This document shows, one piece after another, positions 1 to 17,940 of a stretch of 24,338 bases of DNA. This stretch comes from Candidatus Sericytochromatia bacterium. Its GTDB lineage: Bacteria > Cyanobacteriota > Sericytochromatia > S15B-MN24 > UBA4093. The stretch spans positions 1 through 24,338 of the forward strand of contig JAKFCT010000039.1 of assembly GCA_036676495.1 (NCBI GenBank). Direction: 5' to 3'. Below the pieces are notes generated by a model. It had not been told where the DNA came from, did no database searches, and worked only from the letters and a program-made list of their open reading frames with translations. Made by a program: the position numbers and the translations under genes. Positions within the stretch are counted from its first letter, which is position 1; every line of letters begins with the position of its first letter.

Positions 1-124
1 CGATAACATCCAGATGGAGATCGAGCTGATCACGCCCGTCGCCGTCGAGGAAGGCATGCGCTTCGCCATCCGCGAAGGCGGCCGTACGGTCGGCGCCGGC
101 GTCGTCGCCAGCATCATGGAGTAA
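1..124 (+). CDS. tuf: Elongation factor Tu, C-terminal end (5'-truncated by the window)
   Basis: The frame from base 2 reads [56 protein letters not shown] is the EF-Tu C-terminal signature. TAA at 122-124. Confidence 0.97.
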
Positions 125-193
125 GCACGCGTCCATTAGCTACAGGCGCTTCGCCGTAGGCGTTCGCCTCACCCGCTGATAGACCCGAGCCTT

Positions 194-234
194 GCCCGTA
201 GCGGGACCTCTAGAGGTCCCGCTACGGGCTTTTT
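194..234 (+). terminator. Rho-independent terminator downstream of tuf
   Basis: Perfect 36-bp palindrome GCCCGTAGCGGGACCTCT/AGAGGTCCCGCTACGGGC (194-229) followed directly by TTTTT (230-234). Confidence 0.9.
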
Positions 235-294
235 ATGGTATCGTGGAGCACGGTTGCCCGGTCTGGAACCGTTTGGCCGAAAGGATCTCCTGGA

Positions 295-1398
295 ATGCGC
301 GCCCCCACCCCGCCGGATGCCGTCCGCTCGCGTCACGTCCTCCCCCTGGCCCTCTGCGCCGGGGTCATCGCGTTGGCGGGCTGCCCCAAGATGCCCCGCA
401 TCAGTCCGGACGATCCGCGACCGACTCCTTCCGCCTCGGCCACCCTCAAGCCCACTCCGAGCCCCTCCCCGTCCCCCGAGGCCACGCCCACTCCCAACGA
501 GGAGCCCACGCTGCGCACGGTCGCGTTGGGATCCCAGCCGCAGGCGATCGCCTTCGCCTCCATCGGGACCGCCTACGTGACCCTGGCGGCCGACATCGTC
601 TCCCTCACTGGCGAGTTGGGAGACAAGACCGCCCCGGCCACCGCCAGCCTCACCCACGAGTCGTTCACCGTCGGCGCTCCCGCCGGCATCCTGACCTTCG
701 GAGACACCACCTGGTTCGCCGATCCGGGTCGCGGGGAGATCCGACGGATCATGCATGGCACCCACTCCGTCATCGACTTCGCCTTCGGTGGCTCACCAGC
801 CCGCCTTGCGAAGGACCGCGACAACGTCTGGTTCACCGACAGCTCCGCACCCCGCGTCGGCATGCTCCCCGGCAACGCCATCAGCGGTATCCGCCCCGTC
901 TCGGCGAACCTCCCCGTCACCGCCAGCGACATCCTGGTCGATCGGGTCGGCCTCGCCTGGGCCCTCGGCAGCGACGGATCTCTCATGAAACTCTCCTTCC
1001 AGGCGGACGAAATCACCGTGACGCCCCTCGCAATGAAGGCCCTCAAGGAAGGCAAGGGGCTGGCCCAGGACGACGCCGGCAACCTCTGGATCACGGCGAT
1101 CTCGACGGAGGACCACAAGCAGCTCATGAAGCTCTCGGCGAACGGCACCTCCACCGAGGACCTCAACCTCGACGCCCCGGGCTTCGTCCCCGGCCGCTTC
1201 GCCATCCGGGGCAACTTCGCCTGGATCGCCGACGCGGCCCCCACCGGCACCACCATCAAGAAGGTCTCCCTGACCACCGGCGAGATCGCCGCCTCCTACG
1301 AGTTGGGCGGACGGGCCGCCGAGGTCGTCAAGGATGACGGCGGCGACCTCTGGCTGCCCATCGTCACCCACAACATCGTCGTCAAACTGGACTTCTAA
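295..1398 (+). CDS. Lipoprotein with Pro/Ser/Thr linker and Vgb/NHL-like beta-propeller
   Basis: Hydrophobic signal peptide ending in lipobox LAGC, a PTPSPSPSPEATPTP linker, and repeated propeller-blade motifs (TTWFAD, NVWFTD, GNLWIT, FAWIAD, GDLWLP). ATG 295 is preferred over 235, which abuts the terminator. Confidence 0.75.
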   Translation: MRAPTPPDAVRSRHVLPLALCAGVIALAGCPKMPRISPDDPRPTPSASATLKPTPSPSPSPEATPTPNEEPTLRTVALGSQPQAIAFASIGTAYVTLAADIVSLTGELGDKTAPATASLTHESFTVGAPAGILTFGDTTWFADPGRGEIRRIMHGTHSVIDFAFGGSPARLAKDRDNVWFTDSSAPRVGMLPGNAISGIRPVSANLPVTASDILVDRVGLAWALGSDGSLMKLSFQADEITVTPLAMKALKEGKGLAQDDAGNLWITAISTEDHKQLMKLSANGTSTEDLNLDAPGFVPGRFAIRGNFAWIADAAPTGTTIKKVSLTTGEIAASYELGGRAAEVVKDDGGDLWLPIVTHNIVVKLDF

Positions 1399-1401
1399 CG
1401 C

Positions 1402-1917
1402 ATGGCATCGCTGCTTTTCTACGTCCTGGCCGCCCTCTTGCTCGCATCCGGAGCCGCCATGGTCTGGGTAAAAAACCCCTGGCACGCTGCCTACGCCTTG
1501 GTGGCCGCCGCCGTGACCGGATCCGCGCTGATTGCCTGGCTACACGCCGAGTTCCTGGCCCTGGCGCTCGTGCTCGCCCTGGCCGGCGGCTTCGCACTCC
1601 TGCTCATGGTGGGGCTGCCCGTGCTGTCGCAGCGACATCCCCTCACCCAGAGCCGTCCGGACGAGGATCGCTCCTTCTGGGCCGGCATCGTCGCGGTGCT
1701 CTTCTTCGTGATCACCTACCGGGTGCTGGCCACGACCCCCTGGGGCGCGGAGGATTTCTCTCGGATGGCGGACGCTCCGCGCGGCCTCGAGGCCATCCGT
1801 ACCCTGGGCGAGACGCTGCGCCACGAATACGCCCTTGCCCTGATCGCGGGAGTCTTCCTGATCGGAGTGGCGCTCGCCGTCGCCTCTGCCCTCAGCCAGC
1901 CGGAGCCGGACGCATGA
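1402..1917 (+). CDS. nuoJ: NADH-quinone oxidoreductase subunit J (NuoJ/NdhG)-like, divergent
   Basis: About 5 hydrophobic segments; KNPWHAAYAL, LHAEFLA and IRTLGETLRHEY resemble NuoJ/NdhG motifs; lies directly before a nuoK-like gene. Confidence 0.75.
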   Translation: MASLLFYVLAALLLASGAAMVWVKNPWHAAYALVAAAVTGSALIAWLHAEFLALALVLALAGGFALLLMVGLPVLSQRHPLTQSRPDEDRSFWAGIVAVLFFVITYRVLATTPWGAEDFSRMADAPRGLEAIRTLGETLRHEYALALIAGVFLIGVALAVASALSQPEPDA

Positions 1918-2339
1918 TGACCTTCCCCTTGCAGGCCTTCAACCTGCCCATCCTCCAATCGCCGCTCGGCATGCCCCATTTCCTCACCGTGGGAGCGGCT
2001 CTCTTCGCCATCGGCCTCTTCGCCACCCTCGCGCACCGCAACCTCCTGCGCATCCTGATGGGCCTGGAGCTGATGCTGCTCGCCGCGATGCTCAACCTGG
2101 CGGCCTTCACCGCCTTCCTTCGCCCTGAGGGCCTTCACGGCCATGCCGTCACGCTCCTGCTGGTGCTCGTGGCGCTCGCGCAGCTGGCCATCGGCCTGGC
2201 CCTGGCAGCCCAGCTCATGCGCATGCCCGAATCCCCGGCCGGCCTCTCGCCCGAACCCCCGGCCGGCCTCTCGCCCGAAACCCCGCCGGTCGAAAACGAT
2301 CCCCTCAACGTTGAACGCTACGACGACTTGAAGTGGTAA
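1914..2339 (+). CDS. nuoK: NADH-quinone oxidoreductase subunit K (NuoK/NdhE)-like with Pro-rich insertion
   Basis: LFAIGLF..HRNLLRILMGLELML..NL matches NuoK, and the tail NVERYDDLKW resembles the NuoK/NdhE terminus. ATGA overlap with the nuoJ-like stop. Confidence 0.85.
   Translation: MMTFPLQAFNLPILQSPLGMPHFLTVGAALFAIGLFATLAHRNLLRILMGLELMLLAAMLNLAAFTAFLRPEGLHGHAVTLLLVLVALAQLAIGLALAAQLMRMPESPAGLSPEPPAGLSPETPPVENDPLNVERYDDLKW
2225..2289 (+). repeat. 24-bp in-frame tandem repeat (about 2.7 copies) in the nuoK-like gene
   Basis: GCCCGAA(T/C)CCCCGGCCGGCCTCTC at 2225-2248 and 2249-2272, plus a partial copy at 2273-2289; encodes PESPAGLS-PEPPAGLS-PETPP. Confidence 0.9.
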
Positions 2340-2345
2340 CTCCCC

Positions 2346-2636
2346 ATGGCAGATAAGCTTCCCCCCGAGACCTCGGCGGACTCGCGCCCGCCCCTCACCC
2401 TCCGCATCGGCCGGATCGTGGCCCAATTCGACCGCTTCGGCGTCGATGGGCTCGTCAATGCCTGCGGTTTCTTGATCTTCGCTGCCGCCGAGGGCCTGCG
2501 CTCCATGCATCACGGCAAGGTGCAGGTCTCCCTGCTCATCGCCATGGCCGTCCTCGTCGCCACGGTCATCGCGGTCATGCTCGGCTTGCCGAACCTCTTC
2601 ATGGGCGCACGTCTCGGCGGAGTGAGCGCATGCTAG
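2346..2636 (+). CDS. Stand-alone NuoL/NdhF C-terminal fragment (lateral amphipathic helix plus last TM helix)
   Basis: FDRFGVDGLVNACGFLIFAAAEGLRSMHHGKVQVSLLI matches the NuoL/NdhF C-terminal pattern D..vDG.VN...geglr..q.G.vq.Y. It occupies the nuoL position between nuoK and nuoM, is only 96 aa, and overlaps the nuoM-like start. Confidence 0.75.
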   Translation: MADKLPPETSADSRPPLTLRIGRIVAQFDRFGVDGLVNACGFLIFAAAEGLRSMHHGKVQVSLLIAMAVLVATVIAVMLGLPNLFMGARLGGVSAC

Positions 2637-4102
2637 ACACCCTCTTTCCCAACCTCTTCCTGCTGAGCGCCTCCGTAGCGCTGCCGATCCTCGCCTCCTT
2701 GATCGTCTGGGGCCTGGGCAAGACGCGGTTCCAGGCCGGTCGGATCGTGGGGATCGGCGCCGCGGCCCTGCCGCTGCTGATCTTGGCGTTCGCGGCCTTC
2801 CGCCTCTCCACGGAGATCGGGTTGCAACTGGGCGATCGCTTCGACTTCTGGCCGGATCTCGGCATCTCCGTCGCGCTGGCCATCGACGGCCTCAGCCTGC
2901 CGTTCGCCCTGCTGGCCGCCGCCCTCGGAGTGCTCGGAGTCTCGTCCGCACGCAGCCCCCATGAGCTCGCGCTCGCCTTGCTCGCACAGGCCACGTCCCT
3001 TTTGCTTTTCGTCTCCGAGGACCTCTTCATCTTTTTGGGGGCCTGGTGGGCCCTTCCCCTCTTGCTGTACGCCCTCATTAACGGCTGGGGGCGCGGCCGC
3101 GCGGAGTACGCGGCGACGAAGTTCCTGGCCATGCTCCTGACGGGCTCGGCCCTGCTCACCGTCAGCCTGCTCGCCATCTACCTGGTCGGCAACGGCAACG
3201 GCTCCATGGCCGCCCTCTGGATCACCAAGCCCGGCTTCCCCGTGGCCTTCCTCAACCACTGGGTGCTCGCCGGCATCCTGCTCTCGGCATGGGTCGCAGC
3301 CCCGCTCTTCCCCTTCCATACCTGGCTCGCGGACGTCTTCGACACCGCCCCTCCGTCGGCCCTGCCGCTCGTCGTGGGTGGAGTCCAGGCAGGAGCCGCC
3401 TATGCGTTCGTTCGCCTGGCCATGGGCCTCTTCCCCAGCTATATGCAGCCCTGGTTGCCCTGGATGGCAGCCCTGGGCGTCCTGACCGCCCTTTACGCCC
3501 TGATGGCCTCCTGGGGCCAGCGCTCGCTCCTGCGCGCGCTCGCCTTGGCGGGCGTCGCCGTCGCCGGCATCGCCCTCGCAGGCTTCTCCGCCGTCTCGGG
3601 TCCCGAAGTCTCCACCGCCGTCGGAAGCACCCTGAACCTGACGCTGGCCGCAGTCGCAGCCGGCGGTCTGCTGACCTGGCTTTCCGCGGAGCTGACCGTG
3701 CGCGCGGGCGCGACGCAGGATCTGCTCGCCCGCTTAGGCTTCCTCACTCCGAGAGGGGCCGCCTCCTGGCTGACGTCAGCCGGCTTGACCCTGGTGCTGC
3801 TCGTCGTGGCCATGGTCTTCATGGTCTCGCCCGTCGTGGAAGCGAACCGATTGGCACTGACGATCGGGATGGGACTCGCCCTCATGGGCCTCATCCTGAC
3901 GGCAGAGAACGCCCTGCGCCGGACCTTGCGCGCTCCTGCCACTCCCGCCCGCGTCGACGGCGTCGAGGACCTGACGGCCCGCGAGCTCGCCCTCGGCTGG
4001 GGAAGCCTGCTGCTCGCCGCCATCCCCATCCTCTGGTTGATCCTCGGGTCCCGGGCGATCGCCGTCTTCGCCTCCCAGCTGAGCCTGGGCTTCGTGCGCT
4101 AG
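2630..4102 (+). CDS. nuoM: NuoM/NdhD-like antiporter-fold membrane protein, degenerate
   Basis: IDGLSLPF, WGRGRAEYAATKF, PLFPFHTWLAD and EDLTARE are NuoM-family motifs; 490 aa, multi-TM. Confidence 0.8.
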   Translation: MLDTLFPNLFLLSASVALPILASLIVWGLGKTRFQAGRIVGIGAAALPLLILAFAAFRLSTEIGLQLGDRFDFWPDLGISVALAIDGLSLPFALLAAALGVLGVSSARSPHELALALLAQATSLLLFVSEDLFIFLGAWWALPLLLYALINGWGRGRAEYAATKFLAMLLTGSALLTVSLLAIYLVGNGNGSMAALWITKPGFPVAFLNHWVLAGILLSAWVAAPLFPFHTWLADVFDTAPPSALPLVVGGVQAGAAYAFVRLAMGLFPSYMQPWLPWMAALGVLTALYALMASWGQRSLLRALALAGVAVAGIALAGFSAVSGPEVSTAVGSTLNLTLAAVAAGGLLTWLSAELTVRAGATQDLLARLGFLTPRGAASWLTSAGLTLVLLVVAMVFMVSPVVEANRLALTIGMGLALMGLILTAENALRRTLRAPATPARVDGVEDLTARELALGWGSLLLAAIPILWLILGSRAIAVFASQLSLGFVR

Positions 4103-4111
4103 GAGGTCGCC

Positions 4112-5539
4112 TTGGATCACGCACTCATCTTGCTGCCGGAGTTCTTGCTCGTCCTCTTGAGCCTCGCCATCCTGGCCTTCGGGCGCTTTGCCCCCCGGAT
4201 CAGCCCTCCCCTGGCCACCTTTGGCCTGGTCGCCGCCTTGGGGATCCTCGTCGGCCAGGCGATGACCGGAGCGCTCGGCGGTCCCGCCTTCGCGGACGCC
4301 GTCCAGATCGGGCCCTTCGCCTGGCTCCTGCGCGGAGCCATCCTGCTCGCGGCCACCGCCTCCGCCGCCATGGCCTGGAGTGAACCCCCCACCCGGCCGG
4401 ACCTCTATTTCGGCCTCCTGACGGCCTCGGCGGTGGGTGCCATGGGCCTCGCCGGCGCGGCTGACCTCCTCGTCCTCTTCCTGAGCTACGCCCTCATGGG
4501 CCTCCCCCTCTTGGGCATGCTCGCCTTAGGGCGGGGGCCCGCGCGCTCGGAAGCAGCCATGAAGCTCTTCATGACCCAGGGCGTGGCTGCTGCCGTCCTG
4601 CTCTTTGCCTTCACATGGGCCTTCGGGCTGGGAGGCAGCACCTCCTTCGTGGCCCTGGGAGCCGCCCTGCAGACGCCCGATACCCTCTTGACGTTCGTCA
4701 TGCTGCTGATGCTCGGAGGCCTCTCCTTCACGGTGGCGGCCTTCCCCTTCCATGCCTGGCTTCCGGACGTCACCGAGGCGAGCCATGCCTCCACCGGAGC
4801 CTGGATCCTGGGCGGAGCCGGCCTTGCCGCCGTGGCGGGGCTGTTGCGGGTCCTGATGATGGTCTTTTCGACCAATACGGCGCTCTGGGCTCCGTACGTG
4901 ACGGGGCTCGCCGTCTTTAGCCTGCTCGCAGGCGGCCTGCTGGCGCTGGCTCAGGCGGATCTCCGGCGCATGCTCGGCTTCCTGGCCGTCGCGACGACCG
5001 GCTTCCTCATGCTGGCGCTCATGGCGGCTTCGCACGCCGCCTCCAGCCAGGAAGCGCTGAGCGCCCTCCTGATGACGGCCCTGACGACGGCGGTCGCCAC
5101 CATGGGGTTGTTTGCCGGCTTGGGCGCCACGCAGGCGCGCTCGCTGGCCGACCTGGGGGGCTTGCACCGGCGTTCACCCGCCCTGGCGCTCGCCATGACG
5201 GCCTGCGCGCTGGGACTGGCCGCCCTGCCCCTCGCCGGGGCCTTCTGGGCCCGCCTGACCCTCATCCGCGCGCTCTTGGTCTACGTCAGCCAATCGATGC
5301 AGTTCGGCATCATCGCCCTGGCCGTGCTCGCCATGGGGATGACCGTGCTCGTGGCCTACACGGCCCTGCGGATCCCCAAGGCCATCTACCTGGGCCCCTC
5401 GGATCCGGAGCGCGCCGATCTCGCCTTCCCGGCCGGTCATACGGCCGTCCTGATGGTTTGCGCGCTACTGAGCGTTGCCTTCTTCGTGGCTCCGGCGCCC
5501 CTTTGGGCCCTCGTGAGCTTCGCCACTCGTGGCTTTTAG
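4112..5539 (+). CDS. nuoN: NuoN/NdhB-like antiporter-fold membrane protein, degenerate
   Basis: LLPEFLL, RSEAAMKLF, AFPFHAWLPDV, QADLRRML and DLGGLHRRSPALA are NuoN motifs; TTG start with AGGAGG at 4101-4106. Confidence 0.8.
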   Translation: MDHALILLPEFLLVLLSLAILAFGRFAPRISPPLATFGLVAALGILVGQAMTGALGGPAFADAVQIGPFAWLLRGAILLAATASAAMAWSEPPTRPDLYFGLLTASAVGAMGLAGAADLLVLFLSYALMGLPLLGMLALGRGPARSEAAMKLFMTQGVAAAVLLFAFTWAFGLGGSTSFVALGAALQTPDTLLTFVMLLMLGGLSFTVAAFPFHAWLPDVTEASHASTGAWILGGAGLAAVAGLLRVLMMVFSTNTALWAPYVTGLAVFSLLAGGLLALAQADLRRMLGFLAVATTGFLMLALMAASHAASSQEALSALLMTALTTAVATMGLFAGLGATQARSLADLGGLHRRSPALALAMTACALGLAALPLAGAFWARLTLIRALLVYVSQSMQFGIIALAVLAMGMTVLVAYTALRIPKAIYLGPSDPERADLAFPAGHTAVLMVCALLSVAFFVAPAPLWALVSFATRGF

Positions 5540-5555
5540 TATTGGGAGTACAGAG

Positions 5556-5846
5556 ATGATCACCAAGGAAACCGTGCAGCACGTCGCAAAGCTTGCTCGC
5601 CTGGAGCTCGCCCCGTACGAGGAGAGCCAGCTCACCAACGAGCTCGGCGCCATCCTCGGCTACGTCGAGCAGCTCGCTCAGGTGGACGTGTCCGGAGTCG
5701 CCCCCACGGCGCAAGCCATCCCCGTCTCGAACGTGGTCCGTGAGGACCAGTTGCGCCCCAGCCTGACGCGCGACGAAGTGCTTCAGAACGCCCCGGCCCC
5801 CGAGCAGGGCATGTTCCGGGTGCCCCGGATCATCGGGGAAGCGTGA
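5556..5846 (+). CDS. gatC: Asp/Glu-tRNA amidotransferase subunit C
   Basis: MITKETVQHVAKLARLEL...VREDQ...NAP...FRVPRI; GGGAG RBS upstream of ATG 5556. Confidence 0.95.
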   Translation: MITKETVQHVAKLARLELAPYEESQLTNELGAILGYVEQLAQVDVSGVAPTAQAIPVSNVVREDQLRPSLTRDEVLQNAPAPEQGMFRVPRIIGEA

Positions 5847-8997: not shown

Positions 8998-10329
<1,332 letters not shown>

Positions 10330-10332
10330 CCT

Positions 10333-12120
10333 GTGGACGGACGTAAGAAAACCAAAATCGTCGCAACGCTCGGCCCCTCGACCAGCACGGACGAGATGGT
10401 CGCCAAGCTGATCGAGGCCGGAGTCGACGTCTTCCGCCTCAACTTCTCGCACGGCTCTCATGAGACCCACCGCGAGAACATCGAGCGCGTGCGGCGCATC
10501 TCCAAGGACATGGGACGCCCGATCGCCCTCCTGCAGGACATCCAGGGGCCCAAGATCCGCGTCGGCGAGATCAACGGCGGCCAGGCCATCCTGGTCCCCG
10601 GCCAGACCTTCATGCTCACCACCACGCCGCTCGAAGGCAACGAGCAGATGGCCTCGGTCACCTACCCCCGCCTCACCGAGGACGTCCGCGAAGGCATGAA
10701 GATCCTCCTGGACGACGGCCTCCTCGAGCTCGTCGTCGTCGAGGTCAAGCCCGAGATGCTGGTGACCCGCGTGGTCGTCGGTGGAGCCCTCAAGCCCCGC
10801 AAGGGCGTGAACTTCCCCGGCTCCATGCTCAAGATCTCCATCATCACCGATAAGGACAAGGCCGACCTCAAGTTCGGAGCCGAGATGGGCATCGACCTCG
10901 TCGCCGCCTCCTTCGTCCAGCAAGCCTCGGACGTCCTGGAGGTCAAGGACTTCCTCGCCCAGCTCGGCAAGAAGACCCCGATCATCGCCAAGATCGAACG
11001 CCGCGAAGCCGTTCAGAACCTCCGCGAGATCATCCAGGTCGCCGACGGCGCCATGGTCGCCCGTGGCGACCTCGGCGTCGAGATCCCGGTCGAGGACGTG
11101 CCCATCGTCCAGAAGCAGATCATCCGGGGCTGCAACCTGGAAGGCAAGCCCGTCATCACCGCCACCCAGATGCTGGACTCGATGATCCGCGCTCCCCGGC
11201 CCACCCGGGCCGAGGCCTCGGACGTCGCCAATGCCATCCTGGACGGCACCGACGCGATCATGCTCTCCAACGAGACGGCCGCGGGCGCCTACCCCCTCGA
11301 ATCGGTCGAGACCATGGCGCGCATCGCCATGCAGGTCGAGCGCTCGATGATGCCCAAGGTCCGGCCCGAACTGGAAGAAGGCTACATCCGTCCCGTGCAG
11401 GACTCGGTCGCTCACGCGGCCACCCGCATGGTCCAGGAGCTGGGCGCCTCGGCCATCGTCACGGCCACCTACTCGGGCAGCTCCGCCCGCATGGTCGCCA
11501 AGTACCGTCCCGGCTGCGCCATCATCGCCGCCACCCCCTTCGAGGACGTCTGCCGCCAGATGAACCTCATCTGGGGGGTCTACCCGATCCGGATCACCCA
11601 GACCGAGACCATCGACGACCTCTTCCAGCAAGCCGTGGCCGAAGCCACCTCCGCCGGCCTGGTCGAGGACGGCGATCAGGTGATCATGGTCGCCGGCATC
11701 CCCATGGGCGTGCCCGGCACCACCAACATGGTCACCGTCGAGGTGGTCTCCAGCATCATCGCCCGGGGCATGGGCCTCGGCCAACGGCCCATCTGCGGCG
11801 TCGCCCGGGTGGTCTTCGACCCCACCCTCGCCTGCGAGGCCGTGCACGCCGGAGACATCCTGGTCACCCAGAACACGGACGCGTCCTGGAACCCGGCCAT
11901 CGAGAAGGCCTCCGCCATCGTGGTCCGCAGCGGCGGCCTCACCTCGCATGCGGCCATCGTGGGGCTCGAGCTCAACAAGCCGGTGATCCTCGGCGTCGAG
12001 GAGCTCGAGAAGATCCGCGACGGAGCGACCATCACGGTCGACCCCCTGCGCGGGCTGATCTTCAGCGGCGAGGCCAAGATCGGCTGTGAGCCGGGACCCA
12101 CCCCCTGGGATCGCTCCTAG
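10333..12120 (+). CDS. pyk: Pyruvate kinase with C-terminal PEP-utilising (phosphohistidine swivel) domain
   Basis: [54 protein letters not shown]; C-terminal [14 protein letters not shown] start. Confidence 0.98.
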
Positions 12121-12142
12121 GCAAGTTCCTCGCAATAGAACC

Positions 12143-12181
12143 GCGAAGCCCCATCCCCCACCTCGGGGGATGGGGCTTCGC
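12143..12181. terminator. GC-rich hairpin between convergent pyk and mobA, probable bidirectional terminator
   Basis: GCGAAGCCCCATCCCCC-ACCTC-GGGGGATGGGGCTTCGC, a 17-bp perfect stem with no U tract. Confidence 0.7.
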
Positions 12182-12240
12182 TCCATGGGTCAGGGCGCGG
12201 GATCGCAGGCCCAGGCGTCCGGGCGCACTCCCTCCGGGTG

Positions 12241-12858
12241 CTAAGGGGCGCTCCCGCCGCGCCGGGACGCCAGGTCGCGCAGGGCCTCATGGTAGTCCTC
12301 CGGGCGATTGAGGTTCCGGAAGGAGGCAAGCTCGGGGTCGTAGCGGCGCACCACCCCGACGGGGATCTCCCGCACGCGGATCGCCGCGAGGAAGCGCTGC
12401 ATGCTCAGGTCGTCCGCGGCGCCCGGCGCGCGGAGCATGGGCAGGATCCGGCGGGAGTAGACGGCCAGCAAGGGCTCTCGGCCCCGGGCGCTGCACGGCA
12501 CGACGGCATCCGCGTCCAAGGTCTGCTCGGCCAGGAAGCGCAGCAAGTTCGGGTTCAAGAACGGCATGTCGCAGGCGGTCAGCAGGACCTGAGGCTCCTC
12601 GACGGCTTCCAACCCGCTCGCCAGGGCTTCCAGGGGGCCTCGGCCCGGATGGCGATCGGGGATTCGGGGGGCCTCCGGCAGCGGAAAATCCGCATGCCCG
12701 ACCACCAGGACGTTCGGGAAGATCTCGGAGAGCATGGCGTGGACGCGGACGGCCATCGGGACCCCTCCGAAGGGCAGTCGAGCCTTGTCCTGGCCCATTC
12801 GGCGGCTCTTTCCACCCGTGAGCAAGAGGGCCGCGCGGGTCTGAAGGGGGTCGGGCAT
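12241..12858 (-). CDS. mobA: Molybdenum cofactor guanylyltransferase
   Basis: LTGGKSRRMGQDKA, GPL, ACDMPF, EPLLAVY, FRNLNRPED; GGAGG RBS; divergent from the molybdoenzyme operon. Confidence 0.92.
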   Translation of the reverse strand: MPDPLQTRAALLLTGGKSRRMGQDKARLPFGGVPMAVRVHAMLSEIFPNVLVVGHADFPLPEAPRIPDRHPGRGPLEALASGLEAVEEPQVLLTACDMPFLNPNLLRFLAEQTLDADAVVPCSARGREPLLAVYSRRILPMLRAPGAADDLSMQRFLAAIRVREIPVGVVRRYDPELASFRNLNRPEDYHEALRDLASRRGGSAP

Positions 12859-12993
12859 GGGGCCTCCGGAGGTCTTGGGGACGCTTCCTTCTTATCCTAG
12901 CGGGACTTCAGAGGACGAGCGGAAAAGCACTTGAATTCCATGATGAATTTATGTTAAGCCACATGAGGGAAGCTGCCACGATCGGAGGGCGCC

Positions 12994-14118
12994 ATGAGAC
13001 CCGACACGGGCCCCGGCATGAGACCTGGCATGAGACCCGGCCGGAAGGTCGCTCCGGACGATCCGGCGGACCGCGCGGCGGCGAAGGCCCGCGTGCCGGC
13101 CGCCGCCCTGGCGCTCTTGTCGGCCGTCGTGGTGGTGCTGCTCGCCTACCTCGGCTCGCGGGGGTTCCGGGACTTCGACGTGGCGCTGATCGGGTACTTC
13201 GTGGGCCTGGTCTTCGCGACGGCGGCGATCGTCTACCGCTACAGCCTCTGGATCACGCGCCCGCCAACCTGGCGGTATTTCCGCGCCGGCTGGGCCAACT
13301 TCTTCTCCTGGAAGAACTTCACGCGCTACACCTTGCTCTTGCCGGTGGCGCTTTGGCACGACCTGATCGCCCAGACCTTCATCCGCAAGCGCAGCCTCAG
13401 GCGCTGGCTGATGCACCAGGCGATCTTCTGGGGAGTGATCCTGAGCTTGCTCGTCACCATTCCGCTGACCATGGGCTGGATCCGCTTCACGTTGATCCCG
13501 CCGGATACCTACGTGGCCTGGTTCTTCGGCCTGCCGATCATGCGCTTTCCCATCGAGGCGGGGACGGGGTTCGCCATCTTCCATGCCCTGGATTGGTCGG
13601 CGCTATTGCTGATCGTGGGGCTGGTCATCGCCTTCTGGGGGCGGCTCAACGACGTGGGCAGCCTCACGACGCAGCGCTTCAGCTTCGACCTGATGCCCCT
13701 GGTGCTGCTGGCGGCGATCGCCGTGAGTGGGCTCTTGCTCACGGCCTCGGTCTGGTGGTGGGAAGGGCGCTATTACTGGTTCATCTCGCTGGCGCACCAG
13801 GTCTTCGTGGTGGGGTGGCTGCTCTCGCTGCCCTTCGGGAAGTTCTTCCACATCGTCCAGCGGCCGGCCAGCATCGGCGTCAAGCTCTACCAGACGGTCA
13901 ACCAGGATCTCGAGCAAGGAACCGGCGTCTGCCGGGGCTGTGGGACGGCCTTGCCGTCTCAGCAGTTCGTCAGCGACCTCAAGGAGACCCTCGTGGATCT
14001 GCGCCAGAACTACGACCTCGGCCATGAGCTCGGCTGGCTCCAGGACTACTGTCCGACCTGCAAGCGGAAGCTTCGCGGCAAGGCCTACTACCAGCTTCTC
14101 GGAAAGAGGTTCCTCTGA
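12994..14118 (+). CDS. Multi-TM NarI/DsrM-like membrane protein (putative cytochrome b) with C-terminal CxxC...CxxC domain
   Basis: About 7 TM segments; His residues in MHQAIFWG, IFHALDW, LAHQVFV and LPFGKFFH (compare the NarI-family PFs(K/R)l.H motif); C-terminal CRGC...CPTC. Start is ambiguous (ATG 12994, 13018 or 13030). Confidence 0.7.
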   Translation: MRPDTGPGMRPGMRPGRKVAPDDPADRAAAKARVPAAALALLSAVVVVLLAYLGSRGFRDFDVALIGYFVGLVFATAAIVYRYSLWITRPPTWRYFRAGWANFFSWKNFTRYTLLLPVALWHDLIAQTFIRKRSLRRWLMHQAIFWGVILSLLVTIPLTMGWIRFTLIPPDTYVAWFFGLPIMRFPIEAGTGFAIFHALDWSALLLIVGLVIAFWGRLNDVGSLTTQRFSFDLMPLVLLAAIAVSGLLLTASVWWWEGRYYWFISLAHQVFVVGWLLSLPFGKFFHIVQRPASIGVKLYQTVNQDLEQGTGVCRGCGTALPSQQFVSDLKETLVDLRQNYDLGHELGWLQDYCPTCKRKLRGKAYYQLLGKRFL

Positions 14119-16418
14119 TGAGCGTCAACAAGGATTTCTTCCAGCCCGATCGGCAGTTCAACTACGATTTCCAGTCGGTCGGCCGGCCCGAGGTCGGCTG
14201 GCAAGAGGCCTCGCATCTTCCCGAGGCCCTGGTGCCGACCCATTGCTCCTTTTGCGGGGTTCAATGCGGGATGTACCTGCGGGTCAGCGACGGTCGCGTC
14301 ACCGGAGTGGAGCCCCGCGACTACCCGCATAACCAGGGCAAGCTCTGTCCGAAGGGAGTGGTCGCCTACCAGCAGGTCGATCATCCGGAAAGGCTGACCA
14401 CGCCCCTGATCCGGCGGGGGGGCAAATCCGGAAAGCTGCAGCCGGCGACCTGGGAGGAGGCGTACGCGGCGATCGCCAGCCGCTGGCAGGAAATCCAGGC
14501 CCGCCACGGCAAGGATGCGGTCGCCGTCTACTCGGGATCCTCCATGACCAACGAGAAATGCTACCTCATGGGGAAGTTCGCCCGGGTGGCCCTGCAGACC
14601 CGGCACATCGACTACAACGGGCGGCTCTGCATGTCCTCGGCGGCCTACGGGTACTCCAAGGCCTTCGGGCTGGATCGCTGCCCCTTGCCGATGACCGACG
14701 TCCCCTTGGCCAAGTGCATCGTCGTGGTGGGCTCGAACGTCGCGGAGTGCTTCCCGATCCTCATGCACTGGATCTGGCAGGCCCGCGACCGCGGCGCGCG
14801 GCTGATCGTCCTCGATCCTCGCGAGACGCCCATCGCGCGCACGGCGGACCTCTGGCTCCCGGTCAAGCCCGGCACGGACGTGGCCGTGCTCAACGCCATG
14901 CTGCGCCAGGTCATCCAGGACGGCCGGGTCGACGAGGCCTATATCCAAGCGCGAACCAACGGCTGGGAAGCGACCAAGGCCATGGTCGAATCCTTCACCC
15001 CCGAGGAGGCCGAGCGACTGAGCGGCGTTCCCGCCGAGCGGATCCTGGCGGCGGCCCGCCTCTACGGGGAGGCCGATCCATCGCTCATCATGCATGCGCG
15101 CGGCATCGAGCACAGCACCCACGGGGTCAATAACGTGCTGGCATGCATCAACCTGGCCCTCGCGCGCGGGCAGGTCGGCAAGCCCGGCGGGGGCTCCATG
15201 ATGATCACCGGCCAGGGCAACGGCCAGGGCGGGCGGGAGGTCGGCCAGAAGGCCAACCAATTGCCCGGCTACCGGCATATCACCTTGCCGGAGGATCGGG
15301 AGTACGTGGCCAAGGTCTGGGGGATTCCCGTCGATTCCTTGCCCTGGGAAGGGGCGGCGGCGACCGAGATGGTCCGCTTGATGGCAGAGGGCACGATCAA
15401 GTCCTGCCTCATCGCCTGCTCCAACCTCATGGTCTCGCTTCCCGACAACGCGGTCGTCCAGCGTGCCTTGCAGCAGCTCGATCCCCTGGTGGTGGTCGAC
15501 TTCTTCATGTCGGAGACCGCCGAACTGGCGGACATCGTCCTGCCGGGCTCGGTCTGGTGCGAGGACGAGGGGACCACGACCAACCTGGAAGGCCGGGTCG
15601 TCAAGATCAACCGGGCGGCGGATCCTCCCGGCATCGCCAAGCGGGACTGGGAGATCCTCTGCGACCTGGCCCGCCACCTGGGGCGGCCCCACGGCTTCAC
15701 GTTCCGCTCGGTCCGCGAGATCTGGGACGAGCTGCGCCTGGCGTCCAAGGGAGGGGTTTCCGACTATTACGGCATCACATGGGAGAAGATCGATGCGCAG
15801 GCCGGGGTCTTCTGGCCCTGTCCCTCGGAGGATCACCCGGGCACCCCGCGGCTCTTCACGGAGCGCTTCGCGCATCCGGATGGGCGGGCGAAGTTCTTCG
15901 CCATCCCGTTCGCCCCGGCCGCCGAAGAGCCCGGCGGAGACTATCCCTTCCGGCTCACGACAGGGCGGGTCGTCTACCAGTACCTGAGCGGCACCCAGAC
16001 CCGGCGACTCGGCTTCCTCAACAGCCAGGCTCCCGAGCCCTGGGTCGAAATTCACCCCCAGGCCGCGGATCCCCTCGGCATCCAAACCGACGACTTGGTG
16101 CGGGTGCGCACCCCGCGCGGCGCGATGGAGCTCAAGGCCCTGGTCACGCCGACCATTCGGCCCGATACCCTCTTCATCCCCTTTCACTACGGCCATGCGC
16201 ACGCCGTCAACCAGCTCACCAACCCCGCCGTCGAGCCGAACGTCAAGATCCCGGAGTACAAGGCGTGCGCAGCGGCCATCGAGCGGCTCGAGGCCCCACC
16301 CCGAGCGCTGGATCGCAGCCCCAAGCAGAACCTGACGGCTCAGCAGGCGCCTGAGATGTTTCCTTACGCCTCGGGAGCGGGCGAAGCGGGCGAGGCGACG
16401 GAAGGGAAGACCTACTAG
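14118..16418 (+). CDS. Mo-bisPGD oxidoreductase, NasA/NarB/NapA-type nitrate reductase catalytic subunit
   Basis: [4Fe-4S] motif CSFCGVQC...LCPKG; Mo-ligand region NGRLCMSSA; TGQGNGQGGRE; EGTTTNLEGR; LTTGR...QTRR; IPEYKACA. No Tat signal. TGATG coupling with the upstream gene. Confidence 0.88.
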   Translation: MSVNKDFFQPDRQFNYDFQSVGRPEVGWQEASHLPEALVPTHCSFCGVQCGMYLRVSDGRVTGVEPRDYPHNQGKLCPKGVVAYQQVDHPERLTTPLIRRGGKSGKLQPATWEEAYAAIASRWQEIQARHGKDAVAVYSGSSMTNEKCYLMGKFARVALQTRHIDYNGRLCMSSAAYGYSKAFGLDRCPLPMTDVPLAKCIVVVGSNVAECFPILMHWIWQARDRGARLIVLDPRETPIARTADLWLPVKPGTDVAVLNAMLRQVIQDGRVDEAYIQARTNGWEATKAMVESFTPEEAERLSGVPAERILAAARLYGEADPSLIMHARGIEHSTHGVNNVLACINLALARGQVGKPGGGSMMITGQGNGQGGREVGQKANQLPGYRHITLPEDREYVAKVWGIPVDSLPWEGAAATEMVRLMAEGTIKSCLIACSNLMVSLPDNAVVQRALQQLDPLVVVDFFMSETAELADIVLPGSVWCEDEGTTTNLEGRVVKINRAADPPGIAKRDWEILCDLARHLGRPHGFTFRSVREIWDELRLASKGGVSDYYGITWEKIDAQAGVFWPCPSEDHPGTPRLFTERFAHPDGRAKFFAIPFAPAAEEPGGDYPFRLTTGRVVYQYLSGTQTRRLGFLNSQAPEPWVEIHPQAADPLGIQTDDLVRVRTPRGAMELKALVTPTIRPDTLFIPFHYGHAHAVNQLTNPAVEPNVKIPEYKACAAAIERLEAPPRALDRSPKQNLTAQQAPEMFPYASGAGEAGEATEGKTY

Positions 16419-16460
16419 CTCGCTTTCTCGACGTCCCGAGGCCTCGGAGAGGAGGAGCGG

Positions 16461-17081
16461 ATGGCCATCGATACGCTGTTCATGGATCCGTCGCGCTGCA
16501 TCGGCTGCCGCGCCTGCGAGGCCGCCTGCCGGGAATGCGACTCCCACAAGGGCGAGAGCATGATCATGGTCGACTTCGTCGACCGCGCCCAGAACGTGGC
16601 CACTCAGCCGACGGTCTGCATGCACTGCGAGGATCCGGTGGCTCCTTGCGCGCAGGTCTGCCCGGTCATGGCCATCCTGATCACCGGCGAGGGGGTGGTC
16701 CAGCAGGCGGAGCCCTCCCGGTGCATCGCATGCCGAAACTGCGTCTACGCCTGTCCCTTCGGGGTCCCGAAGATGGACCTGGAGGCGCGCCTGATGAAGA
16801 AGTGCAACCTCTGCTACGACCGGACCGTCCAGGACCTCAAGCCCTGGTGCGCGCAGGCCTGTCCGACCCAGGCCATCTGGTACGGCACCTACGAGGAGTT
16901 CGTCAACCAGCGCAACGGGCGCGCCGTGAACCAGACCGTCTTCGGGACTCAAGCGGTCCGAACCCGGGTCTACCACGTGCTTCCCGAGGAGGTCGACACG
17001 CTCGACCTCGTGGCGCTGCTCGAAGGCGCCGCCAGCGAGCTCGGCCGCCCCTCGGCGGAAAAGGAGGCCTGGGTCCTATGA
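16461..17081 (+). CDS. 4x[4Fe-4S] electron-transfer subunit (DmsB/NrfC/FdnH family)
   Basis: CIGCRACEAAC, CMHCEDPVAPCAQVCP, CIACRNCVYACP, KCNLC...WCAQACP; strong GGAGGAG RBS. Confidence 0.92.
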   Translation: MAIDTLFMDPSRCIGCRACEAACRECDSHKGESMIMVDFVDRAQNVATQPTVCMHCEDPVAPCAQVCPVMAILITGEGVVQQAEPSRCIACRNCVYACPFGVPKMDLEARLMKKCNLCYDRTVQDLKPWCAQACPTQAIWYGTYEEFVNQRNGRAVNQTVFGTQAVRTRVYHVLPEEVDTLDLVALLEGAASELGRPSAEKEAWVL

Positions 17082-17641
17082 ACGAGCCGACGACGCCAGG
17101 TCTGTCCCCGCAGCCGGGCCCCTTCGGCCCCCGGGAGGCGGCTCCCGGACCGGATCAGCCGCCGTTCGAAAAATGGCGTACGACCTTCCCGTTCCACTGG
17201 GACGCCGACGAATTGGTTTCCCGCCGCGAGCTGCTTTACTTCACCGTCTTCGCCTCCGCCACCATGTTCAGCACGACCTTCCTGCTCGCGATCCTCGGCT
17301 GGCTGAGGCAGCCCGTACATGGCAGCATTCAGCCGGTCGTCAGGATCGGCGACGTCCCCGAAGGCGGGGCGCATTACTTCGATTACCCGGGCCCGGACCA
17401 GTTGGCCGTGCTCTTGCACCTTCCCGGCGGTCGCTTCGTCGCCTACAGCCTGCGCTGCACCCACCTCTCCTGCGCCGTCTACTTCAACGCGGAGCGCCAA
17501 GAGCTGATTTGCCCCTGCCATCACGGGCTCTTCGAACTCGCGTCGGGAGAGCCCGTGGCGGGTCCGCCGCGCAGGAGGCTGGAGCAGATAGCCTTGCGCC
17601 AGGAGGGCGACGTGCTCTACGCCGTCGCGATCGCCCCATGA
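17078..17641 (+). CDS. Rieske [2Fe-2S] protein with N-terminal twin-arginine-like motif and TM anchor
   Basis: CTHLSC and CPCHHG Rieske boxes; SRRELL followed by a hydrophobic helix; ATGA overlap with the ferredoxin stop. Confidence 0.9.
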   Translation: MNEPTTPGLSPQPGPFGPREAAPGPDQPPFEKWRTTFPFHWDADELVSRRELLYFTVFASATMFSTTFLLAILGWLRQPVHGSIQPVVRIGDVPEGGAHYFDYPGPDQLAVLLHLPGGRFVAYSLRCTHLSCAVYFNAERQELICPCHHGLFELASGEPVAGPPRRRLEQIALRQEGDVLYAVAIAP

Positions 17642-17940
17642 GGCGCCGTCCGTCGGGCTCCCCGCATGGGCCGCCCTTGCCCGGCCAGCAGGCCCTGGTC
17701 ACGGCCGGCATGGTCATGGGCTTCGTGCTGCTGGGCGCGCAACTCTGGCTGCTCACCGTGGCGCTGGATCTCTACCTGGCGGGACGCGGCAGCAACATCT
17801 GGCTCTTGGCGCTGGTTTCGGGGCTCATCACAGCCGGCGGCCTCGCGATCCTCTACCTCTTGCATCGCCGGCCCCGCGTGCAACGCCTGACCACCGATGA
17901 ATCCGGGCGAACCGTCCGCCGCTTCGAGCACGACGTCTGA
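17638..17940 (+). CDS. Small two-TM membrane protein (QLWLL motif; DUF6755-like from recall)
   Basis: ATGA overlap with the Rieske stop; two hydrophobic helices around AQLWLLTVALDLYLAG. Confidence 0.7.
   Translation: MRRRPSGSPHGPPLPGQQALVTAGMVMGFVLLGAQLWLLTVALDLYLAGRGSNIWLLALVSGLITAGGLAILYLLHRRPRVQRLTTDESGRTVRRFEHDV

Follow-up and report, generated by a model that had tools for sequence, protein, structure and literature searches.

The closest described counterparts of the gene considered here are NuoL, NdhF and Nqo12 of complex I and cyanobacterial NDH-1, in which a long lateral helix (HL) precedes the last transmembrane (TM) helix, TM16. PMC8165549 describes HL as a universally conserved helix that is as long as the number of antiporter-like subunits under it requires, and cites cross-linking and mutagenesis work for its role in assembly. 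Whether HL is a coupling rod or a clamp has been debated, and this review favours the clamp (its references 57 and 58). The same source places the HL of MBH on a separate small subunit, MbhI, consisting of HL with transmembrane helices (TMH) 1-2, and describes Mrp as a membrane-only assembly of two antiporter-like subunits with K- and J-like elements and a short HL. Here we analyze a 24,338-nt stretch of DNA from a Candidatus Sericytochromatia bacterium (the window; contig C39 of assembly G000, 4.1 Mb, 92% complete), in which a 96-aa gene, termed mini-L, occupies the place of nuoL between nuoK-like and nuoM-like genes and encodes only the distal part of HL and TM16.

Mini-L resembles NuoL/NdhF/Nqo12 in its DR..DG..N...E..L...G..Q pattern, its slot between K and M, and a predicted long helix followed by a TM helix. 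It differs in being a separate gene, from which TM15, the proximal HL and the 14-TM core of the antiporter are all missing, and in its setting: the surrounding cluster encodes no Q-module, NuoH or NuoA, and key charges have disappeared from its antiporter-like subunits. Like MbhI, it is a small, separately encoded lateral-helix subunit, and according to PMC8165549 the MbhI helix ties the antiporter-like part to its neighbours. However, the order described there for MbhI is TMH1-HL-TMH2, whereas mini-L has no TM helix before its lateral helix and appears to derive from a truncated ndhF-type gene; moreover, searching the PDB with the mini-L profile brings up no MBH chain at E <= 1, and Pfam detects no hydrogenase-type genes in the window cluster. 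In Mrp, MrpA carries HL, MrpC is NuoK-like and MrpD is NuoM/N-like, but HL lies within MrpA and the charged axis is intact; the proteins of the window cluster are nearest to NdhD, NdhB, NdhE and NdhG, and a separate Mrp-like pair is encoded on contig C47. Complex I variants with a second NuoM have a lengthened NuoL helix (the "2M" complexes). There, as here, HL is as long as the count of antiporter-like subunits demands, but their arm is extended and functional, whereas the arm encoded in the window is shortened and stripped of catalytic partners and charges. A literature search, with subscription journals outside its coverage, turned up neither a stand-alone NuoL C-terminus nor this relic cluster, and the accessible part of PMC8235220 treats the phylogeny of Sericytochromatia complex I without the words "partial" or "truncated".

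The mini-L gene and its relatives

The ATG of mini-L at 2346 follows the TAA stop codon of the K-like gene after a gap of 6 nt, and its own stop ends at 2636, overlapping by 7 nt the M-like gene that starts with the ATG at 2630, which confirms the coordinates in the preliminary description of a 96-aa gene in the nuoL slot. The open frame around mini-L is at most 98 codons and therefore leaves no room for a longer protein or for more of NuoL. The peptide reads FDRFGVDGLVN...EGLRSMHHGKVQ, followed by a single strongly hydrophobic stretch with a Kyte-Doolittle maximum of 2.9 at residues 61-79 that is preceded by four Arg residues; the amphipathic stretch at residues 16-39 has a hydrophobic moment of 0.5-0.6. 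In the AlphaFold2 model, calculated with 21 sequences, the two helices listed in Table 1 are joined by a loop at residues 53-58 and followed by a further helix at residues 81-91; simple arithmetic on this model gives ∼54 Å for the 36-residue lateral helix. The HL part holds the D29-R30...D34-G35..N38...E49 motif common to canonical NuoL, and of the two D..(I/V)DG.VN repeats present in the HL of many canonical NuoL proteins mini-L retains only the second.

Comparison with NuoL/NdhF families places every match within the last ∼60 residues of these proteins. The NCBIfam model NF005633 (NdhF) aligns with mini-L at profile positions 550-606 of 613 (E 9.9e-7), with a score of 27.7 bits against a whole-protein cut-off of 676, which is thus not reached. 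The single sequence matches residues 596-652 of 656 of 6hum_F by phmmer (E 5.5e-4), and the mini-L family profile matches residues 595-654 of the same chain (E 5.5e-8) and residues 545-605 of 611 of NdhF3 in 6tjv (6tjv_F; E 1.2e-3). The profile comparisons bear out the earlier proposal that only the lateral-helix segment and the terminal TM helix are retained. Pfam finds no significant match in the 96 residues, including none to the antiporter core families PF00361 and PF00662. A Foldseek search of the model against the PDB gives no match at E <= 0.001, and its four weak rows, ribosomal and translocon helices, are not meaningful for a helix-loop-helix modelled at pLDDT 64. What mini-L comprises is the distal HL and TM16 end of NuoL alone. 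Its homology covers a part of NuoL/NdhF that does not include the defining core of the family, and we do not class it as NuoL. Full-length L occupies the same slot between nuoK and nuoM in genomes G021 and G001.

Table 1. Features of the module and adjoining genes in the window. Bit scores are from tblastn at E 1e-3 against the gatC-linked operon of G021 and the resident operon on contig C80; dN/dS is defined in the text.
Feature	Position	Strand	Assignment and evidence	Bits, G021 operon	Bits, C80 operon	dN/dS
mini-L (L')	2346..2636	+	ORF of 96 aa; stand-alone homologue of the NuoL/NdhF C-terminus (distal HL + TM16)	38.5	no hit	0.40-0.52
HL equivalent, mini-L residues 17-52	2394..2501	+	AlphaFold2 helix; first part (~16-39) amphipathic			
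TM16 equivalent, mini-L residues 59-82	2520..2591	+	sole TM helix; hydropathy 2.2-2.9; AlphaFold2 helix 59-78; aligns with last TM of 6hum_F			
NuoJ/NdhG-like	1402..1917	+	171 aa; PF00499 E 4.1e-14; 6hum_G E 4.2e-5	92.8	no hit	0.22-0.26
NuoK/NdhE-like	1914..2339	+	141 aa; PF00420 E 3.2e-14; TM2 Glu kept, TM3 Glu -> Gln	69.3	52.8	0.34-0.38
NuoM/NdhD-like	2630..4102	+	490 aa; PF00361 E 1.6e-14, profile positions 1-192 of 294 only	109	95.5	0.31-0.34
NuoN/NdhB-like	4112..5539	+	475 aa; PF00361 E 1.2e-35	159	131	0.25-0.32
gatC	5529..5846	+	PF02686 E 3.5e-21; overlaps N-like stop; synteny anchor to G021 operon			0.11-0.22
lipoprotein	235-1398	+	lipobox LAGC; Pro/Thr/Ser-rich linker; weak beta-propeller-like matches (Vgb_lyase E 0.0018)			0.54-0.76

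The relatives of mini-L were sought at several scales. A search for proteins of similar length yielded 19 scored candidates, 15 of which, each a protein cluster, are relatives of 80-96 aa with 59-100% identity; they come from jgi, ena and lgn sources. Within the class, the family profile has a match in 21 of 47 genomes: 14 matches sit in open frames of 637-803 aa, that is in full-length L, six are short genes, and one, in G019, lies in a 343-aa frame. The short genes belong to three genera of one family, namely g1 (G000, G017 and G018), g2 (G010) and g3 (G012 and G013), and in the five genomes other than G000 they likewise occupy the K-M slot; the frame in G017 is open further upstream, the homologous ATG giving 94 aa. 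Gene spacing is tight throughout, with a gap of 2-8 nt between K and the gene in the L position (L') and anything from a 7-nt overlap to a gap of ∼16 nt between L' and M. A profile search of all lengths in 1.84 billion representatives returned 111 proteins at E <= 1e-3, of which one, of the genus-g1 type, reaches E <= 1e-30; the search contained no close fused form of mini-L, the best full-length proteins standing near E 1e-5. Eighteen of the 111 were inspected: P0018 and P0027 are of the g2/g3 type with a VLRVP(D/E)T tail, P0016, 48 aa long, is a piece of a g1-type protein, and the others look, from their sequences, like C-terminal pieces of NuoL. A scan of metagenome contigs with the mini-L alignment found at least 80 loci, all of them C-termini of longer NuoL-type genes at 28-50% identity, with no close relatives of mini-L among the matches listed.

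Across the three genera the residues R30, G35, E49, Q60, V71, L79 and P82 of mini-L are invariant and D29, D34, L51, R52 and G57 nearly so. Canonical HL, with its DR...DG..N...E...Q pattern, is conserved at the same D-R, D-G, E and Q positions. The C-terminal residue C96 is nearly invariant in the genus-g1 forms and has no counterpart in NdhF alignments.

The arrangement recurs in DNA assembled independently. Logan contigs from a likely source sample match positions 2310-4077 with zero differences, and an independent soil study provides a 4322-nt contig that follows 1402-5393, from J to N, colinearly at ∼90% identity, with 384 substitutions and a single 24-nt deletion in the tail of the K-like gene. 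The seven PF00361 matches of G000 divide into three in a complete nuoA-N operon on contig C80, two in an Mrp cluster (contig C47) and two in the module itself, its M- and N-like genes; the NuoL encoded on C80 is 675 aa long and has its own HL and TM16, and this survey of the 92% complete assembly detects no separate NuoL N-terminal gene.

The C-terminal tail of the K-like protein contains a direct 24-nt repeat (window 2225-2272; PAGLSPE PPAGLSPE). In two other runs the contigs are one unit shorter, X2 at 2263 and X3, a run that covers only parts of the stretch, at 2225, so the number of repeats varies between strains.

Relation to a second complex I operon

The families of J, K, M and N are all represented in the window above their cut-offs (PF00499, PF00420 and PF00361 twice), and the order of the genes has a counterpart in G021, which belongs to another family of the same order. 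There tblastn detects nuoA, B, C, D, H, I, J, K, full-length L, M and N, followed by gatC, in this sequence on one strand, with no matches to nuoE, F or G; this is an 11-gene operon of the NDH-1 type at the same gatC junction. Adjacency of N and gatC is found in loci L198, L197, L111, L112, L114, L196 and L204. The module proteins score higher against the gatC-linked operon of G021 than against the C80 operon of their own genome (Table 1), and their best PDB matches are to NdhG, NdhE, NdhF, NdhD and NdhB, which together argue that the cluster is a remnant of a second operon and not a duplicate of the resident one. From its gene content and order, the window cluster J-K-mini-L-M-N-gatC appears to be what is left of the 11-gene operon after loss of nuoA, B, C, D, H and I. 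Mini-L itself is a real, conserved gene and in all likelihood the remainder of the nuoL/ndhF of this second operon, which had no nuoEFG.

No second set of Q-module and heel subunits (NuoB, C, D, I, H and A) that could serve the module arm was found with it or elsewhere in G000, at 92% completeness: NuoH, NuoD and NuoA are each encoded once in this genome, in the C80 operon, and G017, G012, G010 and G013 have one NuoH gene each. The gene directly upstream of J is an adenosine deaminase in g2 and g3 and a lipoprotein in g1. G021 retains both operons and a third cluster, with eight PF00361 matches and three NuoH-like places. On its contig C171, at ∼9688-14137, two PF00361 genes flank a NuoH-like gene (325-aa frame, E 3.1e-28); they make up the third membrane cluster, complex I-like or hydrogenase-like, which is absent from the family of the window.

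In G019, from a family different from that of the window, a 5.2-kb contig carries J, K, a 343-aa L' (L197 3198-4229, minus strand), M, N and gatC. The last ∼70 residues of this L' are HL and TM16, and the first ∼270 are hydrophobic without a Pfam antiporter match. By phmmer the N-terminal part shows weak colinear stretches to full-length NuoL at ∼65-157 and ∼73-307 (best E 0.0076 and 0.03), and in a MAFFT alignment it is colinear with NuoL from TM1 to ∼TM9. On these weak similarities the 343-aa protein may be a truncation intermediate. The clean deletion of the antiporter domain that had been proposed is too simple an account, since the presence of this longer form in the same slot means that the loss may have been stepwise.

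Charged residues, constraint and transcription

The charged positions compared here are those we take to be the key ones from the E. coli and T. thermophilus literature; they were located on the canonical subunits of G000 and checked against PDB alignments. PMC8165549 was also used in choosing them. The conserved charged axis of complex I, made up of TM5 Glu, TM7 Lys, TM8 Lys/His and TM12 Lys/Glu in the antiporter-like subunits together with both Glu residues of NuoK, is not preserved in the cluster. In the window the M-like protein has lost the TM5 Glu, TM7 Lys, TM8 Lys and TM12 Glu, and the N-like protein carries TM5 Glu to Ala, TM7 Lys to Thr, TM8 Lys to Gly and TM12 Lys to Arg. Among seven module sequences, the M-like TM5 Glu and TM7 Lys are lost in all, the TM8 Lys in six (G019 keeps it), and the TM12 Glu is lost or unalignable in all. 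The N-like TM8 Lys is also lost in all seven; the N-like TM5 Glu and TM7 Lys are kept in the three sequences of g2 and g3 and lost in the three g1 genomes and G019, and TM12 is Lys in four and Arg in the three g1 genomes. The K-like TM3 Glu is Gln in each of the six aligned sequences. The charge loss is thus graded among genera. The suggestion that the locus was designed as a working two-antiporter arm does not survive these comparisons: the cluster has lost A, B, C, D, H and I, the only nuoH, nuoD and nuoA are in the other operon, and most of the key charges are gone.

Ratios of nonsynonymous to synonymous substitution rates (dN/dS) were calculated by the method of Nei and Gojobori for pairs within genus g1 (three genomes). 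All five module genes have values below 1 (Table 1), which shows constraint, although relaxed by comparison with the housekeeping neighbour gatC. The dS values of 0.5-1.1 are probably compressed and underestimated in this GC-rich, codon-biased DNA, so that the ratios are rough.

Shortly before the lipoprotein gene, at 194-229, is a strong terminator-like hairpin, whose 16-bp stem contains 12 G-C pairs and is followed by TTTTT. Terminator-like sites number six against 2.9 expected in shuffled sequences, and only weak ones occur on the plus strand from this hairpin to 7099; lipoprotein, J, K, L', M, N, gatC and the gene for an HI0933-like protein may therefore form one transcription unit. A scan of the plus strand for sigma-70 promoters found no promoter-like site, with a consensus that may not fit this phylum. 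The lipoprotein, which evolves fast (47% identity), was considered as a partner of the module and rejected: it occurs in g1 only, is replaced by adenosine deaminase in g2 and g3, and is the fastest evolving of the genes compared. Several independent assemblies break no more than ∼2.3 kb upstream of mini-L (window 1-235; L114, L196, L111 and L112); the contigs of G000, G017 and G018 break just before the lipoprotein gene and that of G012 inside an EF-Tu-like gene, which hints at a repeated or duplicated gene upstream of the module. Farther downstream in the window, at 14118-17940, three genes look like a Mo-enzyme cluster unrelated to mini-L: they encode the catalytic subunit of a molybdopterin oxidoreductase (766 aa), a 4Fe-4S subunit of 206 aa and a product of 255 aa that has no Pfam match.

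Role of the retained segment

We favour, as somewhat the more probable interpretation, that mini-L is the retained structural strap or clamp of a reduced and probably non-pumping membrane subcomplex. In complex I the face of the membrane on which HL lies is cytoplasmic and the N-terminus of NuoL is periplasmic. Mini-L would work as the HL/TM16 segment does in complex I: its N-terminus would stay in the cytoplasm, its helix would lie on the cytoplasmic face of the membrane along the N-like and part of the M-like subunit, and its TM helix would anchor beside N, J and K and so clamp the residual J-K-M-N subcomplex. Removal of an odd number of helices, TM1-15, would leave a protein able to insert with its N-terminus inside without a signal, a topology that fits the four Arg residues before the TM helix. 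Both the physical contact with the M-, N-, J- and K-like proteins and the clamp role are inferred. A prediction of the complex of M-like residues 1-420, the N-like protein and mini-L, each with its own alignment, scores 0.04 against a mark of 0.32, in a calculation for which controls were not run, and speaks neither for nor against contact. A strap role was already part of the preliminary description and agrees with the account of HL in PMC8165549; the further argument made there, that the module still assembles, is likewise an inference. It is most likely that the residual subcomplex does not act as an ordinary redox-driven proton pump, since no Q-module, NuoH or NuoA belongs to it and it has lost most of the charged axis.

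Several observations weigh against this interpretation. The AlphaFold2 model of mini-L is of modest confidence, with a mean pLDDT of 64. The dN/dS of mini-L is the highest among the five module genes, ∼2-4 times that of gatC, indicating relaxed constraint, and it is subject to the same uncertainty in dS. The K-like TM2 Glu is kept in only three of six sequences and differs even within a genus (E, E, S). In g3 the J- and K-like sequences form one 222-aa ORF (L111 10444-11112, minus strand; L112 1323-1991, plus strand) in which Pfam places K at residues 128-221 and a weak J at 16-116; the M-like subunit of this genus ends after ∼384 aa, and the DG..N motif of its mini-L is degraded (ERDWIGGAYAA). 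In genus g4 none of three genomes has a mini-L match, and G014, 99% complete, has only three PF00361 matches; its HI0933-like gene is present, but gatC and module genes do not adjoin it, and with synteny broken this locus tells nothing about the end stage of the decay. From the degradation in g3 and the absence in g4, the whole module is eroding and dispensable in some lineages.

The same observations bear on the alternative that mini-L belongs to a functionless relic, left over from a dying operon, and has no role of its own. The five frames would stay open since transcription passes through them to gatC, an essential gene that overlaps the N-like stop and on which nonsense mutations would be polar; their hydrophobic helices would stay membrane-like only because misfolded membrane proteins are costly. 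We regard this as unlikely, though it is the alternative to be taken most seriously. In every genome with the module, gatC overlaps the N-like gene or lies almost against it, with only weak terminator-like sites between the 194-229 hairpin and gatC, and the module proteins evolve far faster than their neighbours, g1 and g3 sharing 27-33% identity in these proteins (M 27-30%, N 33%) as against 68-71% in gatC and 62% in the HI0933-like protein; loss of key residues, varying within a genus, and absence of the module from g4 point the same way. Polarity alone, however, would not conserve amino-acid motifs, and the conserved residues of mini-L are precisely those that working NuoL conserves. Moreover, dN/dS is clearly below 1 in all five genes, and their tight coupling has been kept across three genera at ∼30% identity. 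Bacterial genomes usually delete dead DNA, which also counts against a relic.

At the other extreme, the arm, minus redox module, distal pump subunit and nearly all relay charges, would have been maintained by selection for some new task, and its lateral helix would have become a free-standing subunit. We consider this improbable; the task could be that of a scaffold or of a non-pumping alternative arm on the only NuoA-I module. The narrower proposal, that J'-K'-L'-M'-N' is such an alternative arm on the single C80 NuoA-I module, a short isoform of NADH:quinone oxidoreductase with little or no pumping in which mini-L is the strap, is less probable still. It would account for the retention of J- and K-like subunits and for the two sets of J, K, M and N in genomes with one set of nuoH, nuoD and nuoA (G000) or one nuoH (G017, G012, G010 and G013). 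In complex I, J and K contact NuoH and NuoA. The module, however, descends from an operon other than that on C80, so that the J/K interface would have to fit foreign H and A subunits, and the module J has no tblastn match to the C80 operon at E 1e-3; the K-like Glu residues are, in addition, lost or variable.

Co-option of mini-L as an independent small membrane protein unrelated to its M- and N-like neighbours is very improbable: small single-TM proteins are common and the C96 of the g1 forms is a feature of their own, but mini-L is never found outside the K-M slot in the genomes examined, and it is conserved where HL is conserved. Three readings had been named at the outset as a possible undoing of the gene: an artefact of assembly, a recent deletion in one strain, and a split nuoL with its N-terminal half elsewhere. 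They can practically be set aside, as the arrangement is common to independent assemblies and the contig of an independent study, short forms span three genera, every other PF00361 gene of G000 (92% complete) belongs to a complete L/M/N set in the nuoA-N operon or to the MrpA/MrpD set, and no close fused relative exists among the 1.84 billion representatives.

The genomes compared here offer a decay series in the sister lineage of Cyanobacteria, from the full operon through a 343-aa L' and an L' of 82-96 aa to genomes in which no module is found. If the module is only a relic, it is a tidy case of slow operon erosion, of modest interest. The antiporter domain, the redox module and most relay residues have been removed while HL and TM16 are kept as a gene of their own, with the canonical motif, in three genera. 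If the module is kept for a new job, HL and TM16 would be needed to hold antiporter-like subunits together even without energy coupling through them. If mini-L is made and binds the M- and N-like subunits, it would be a minimal system for studying how antiporter-like subunits hold together, and natural evidence for a purely structural role of HL.

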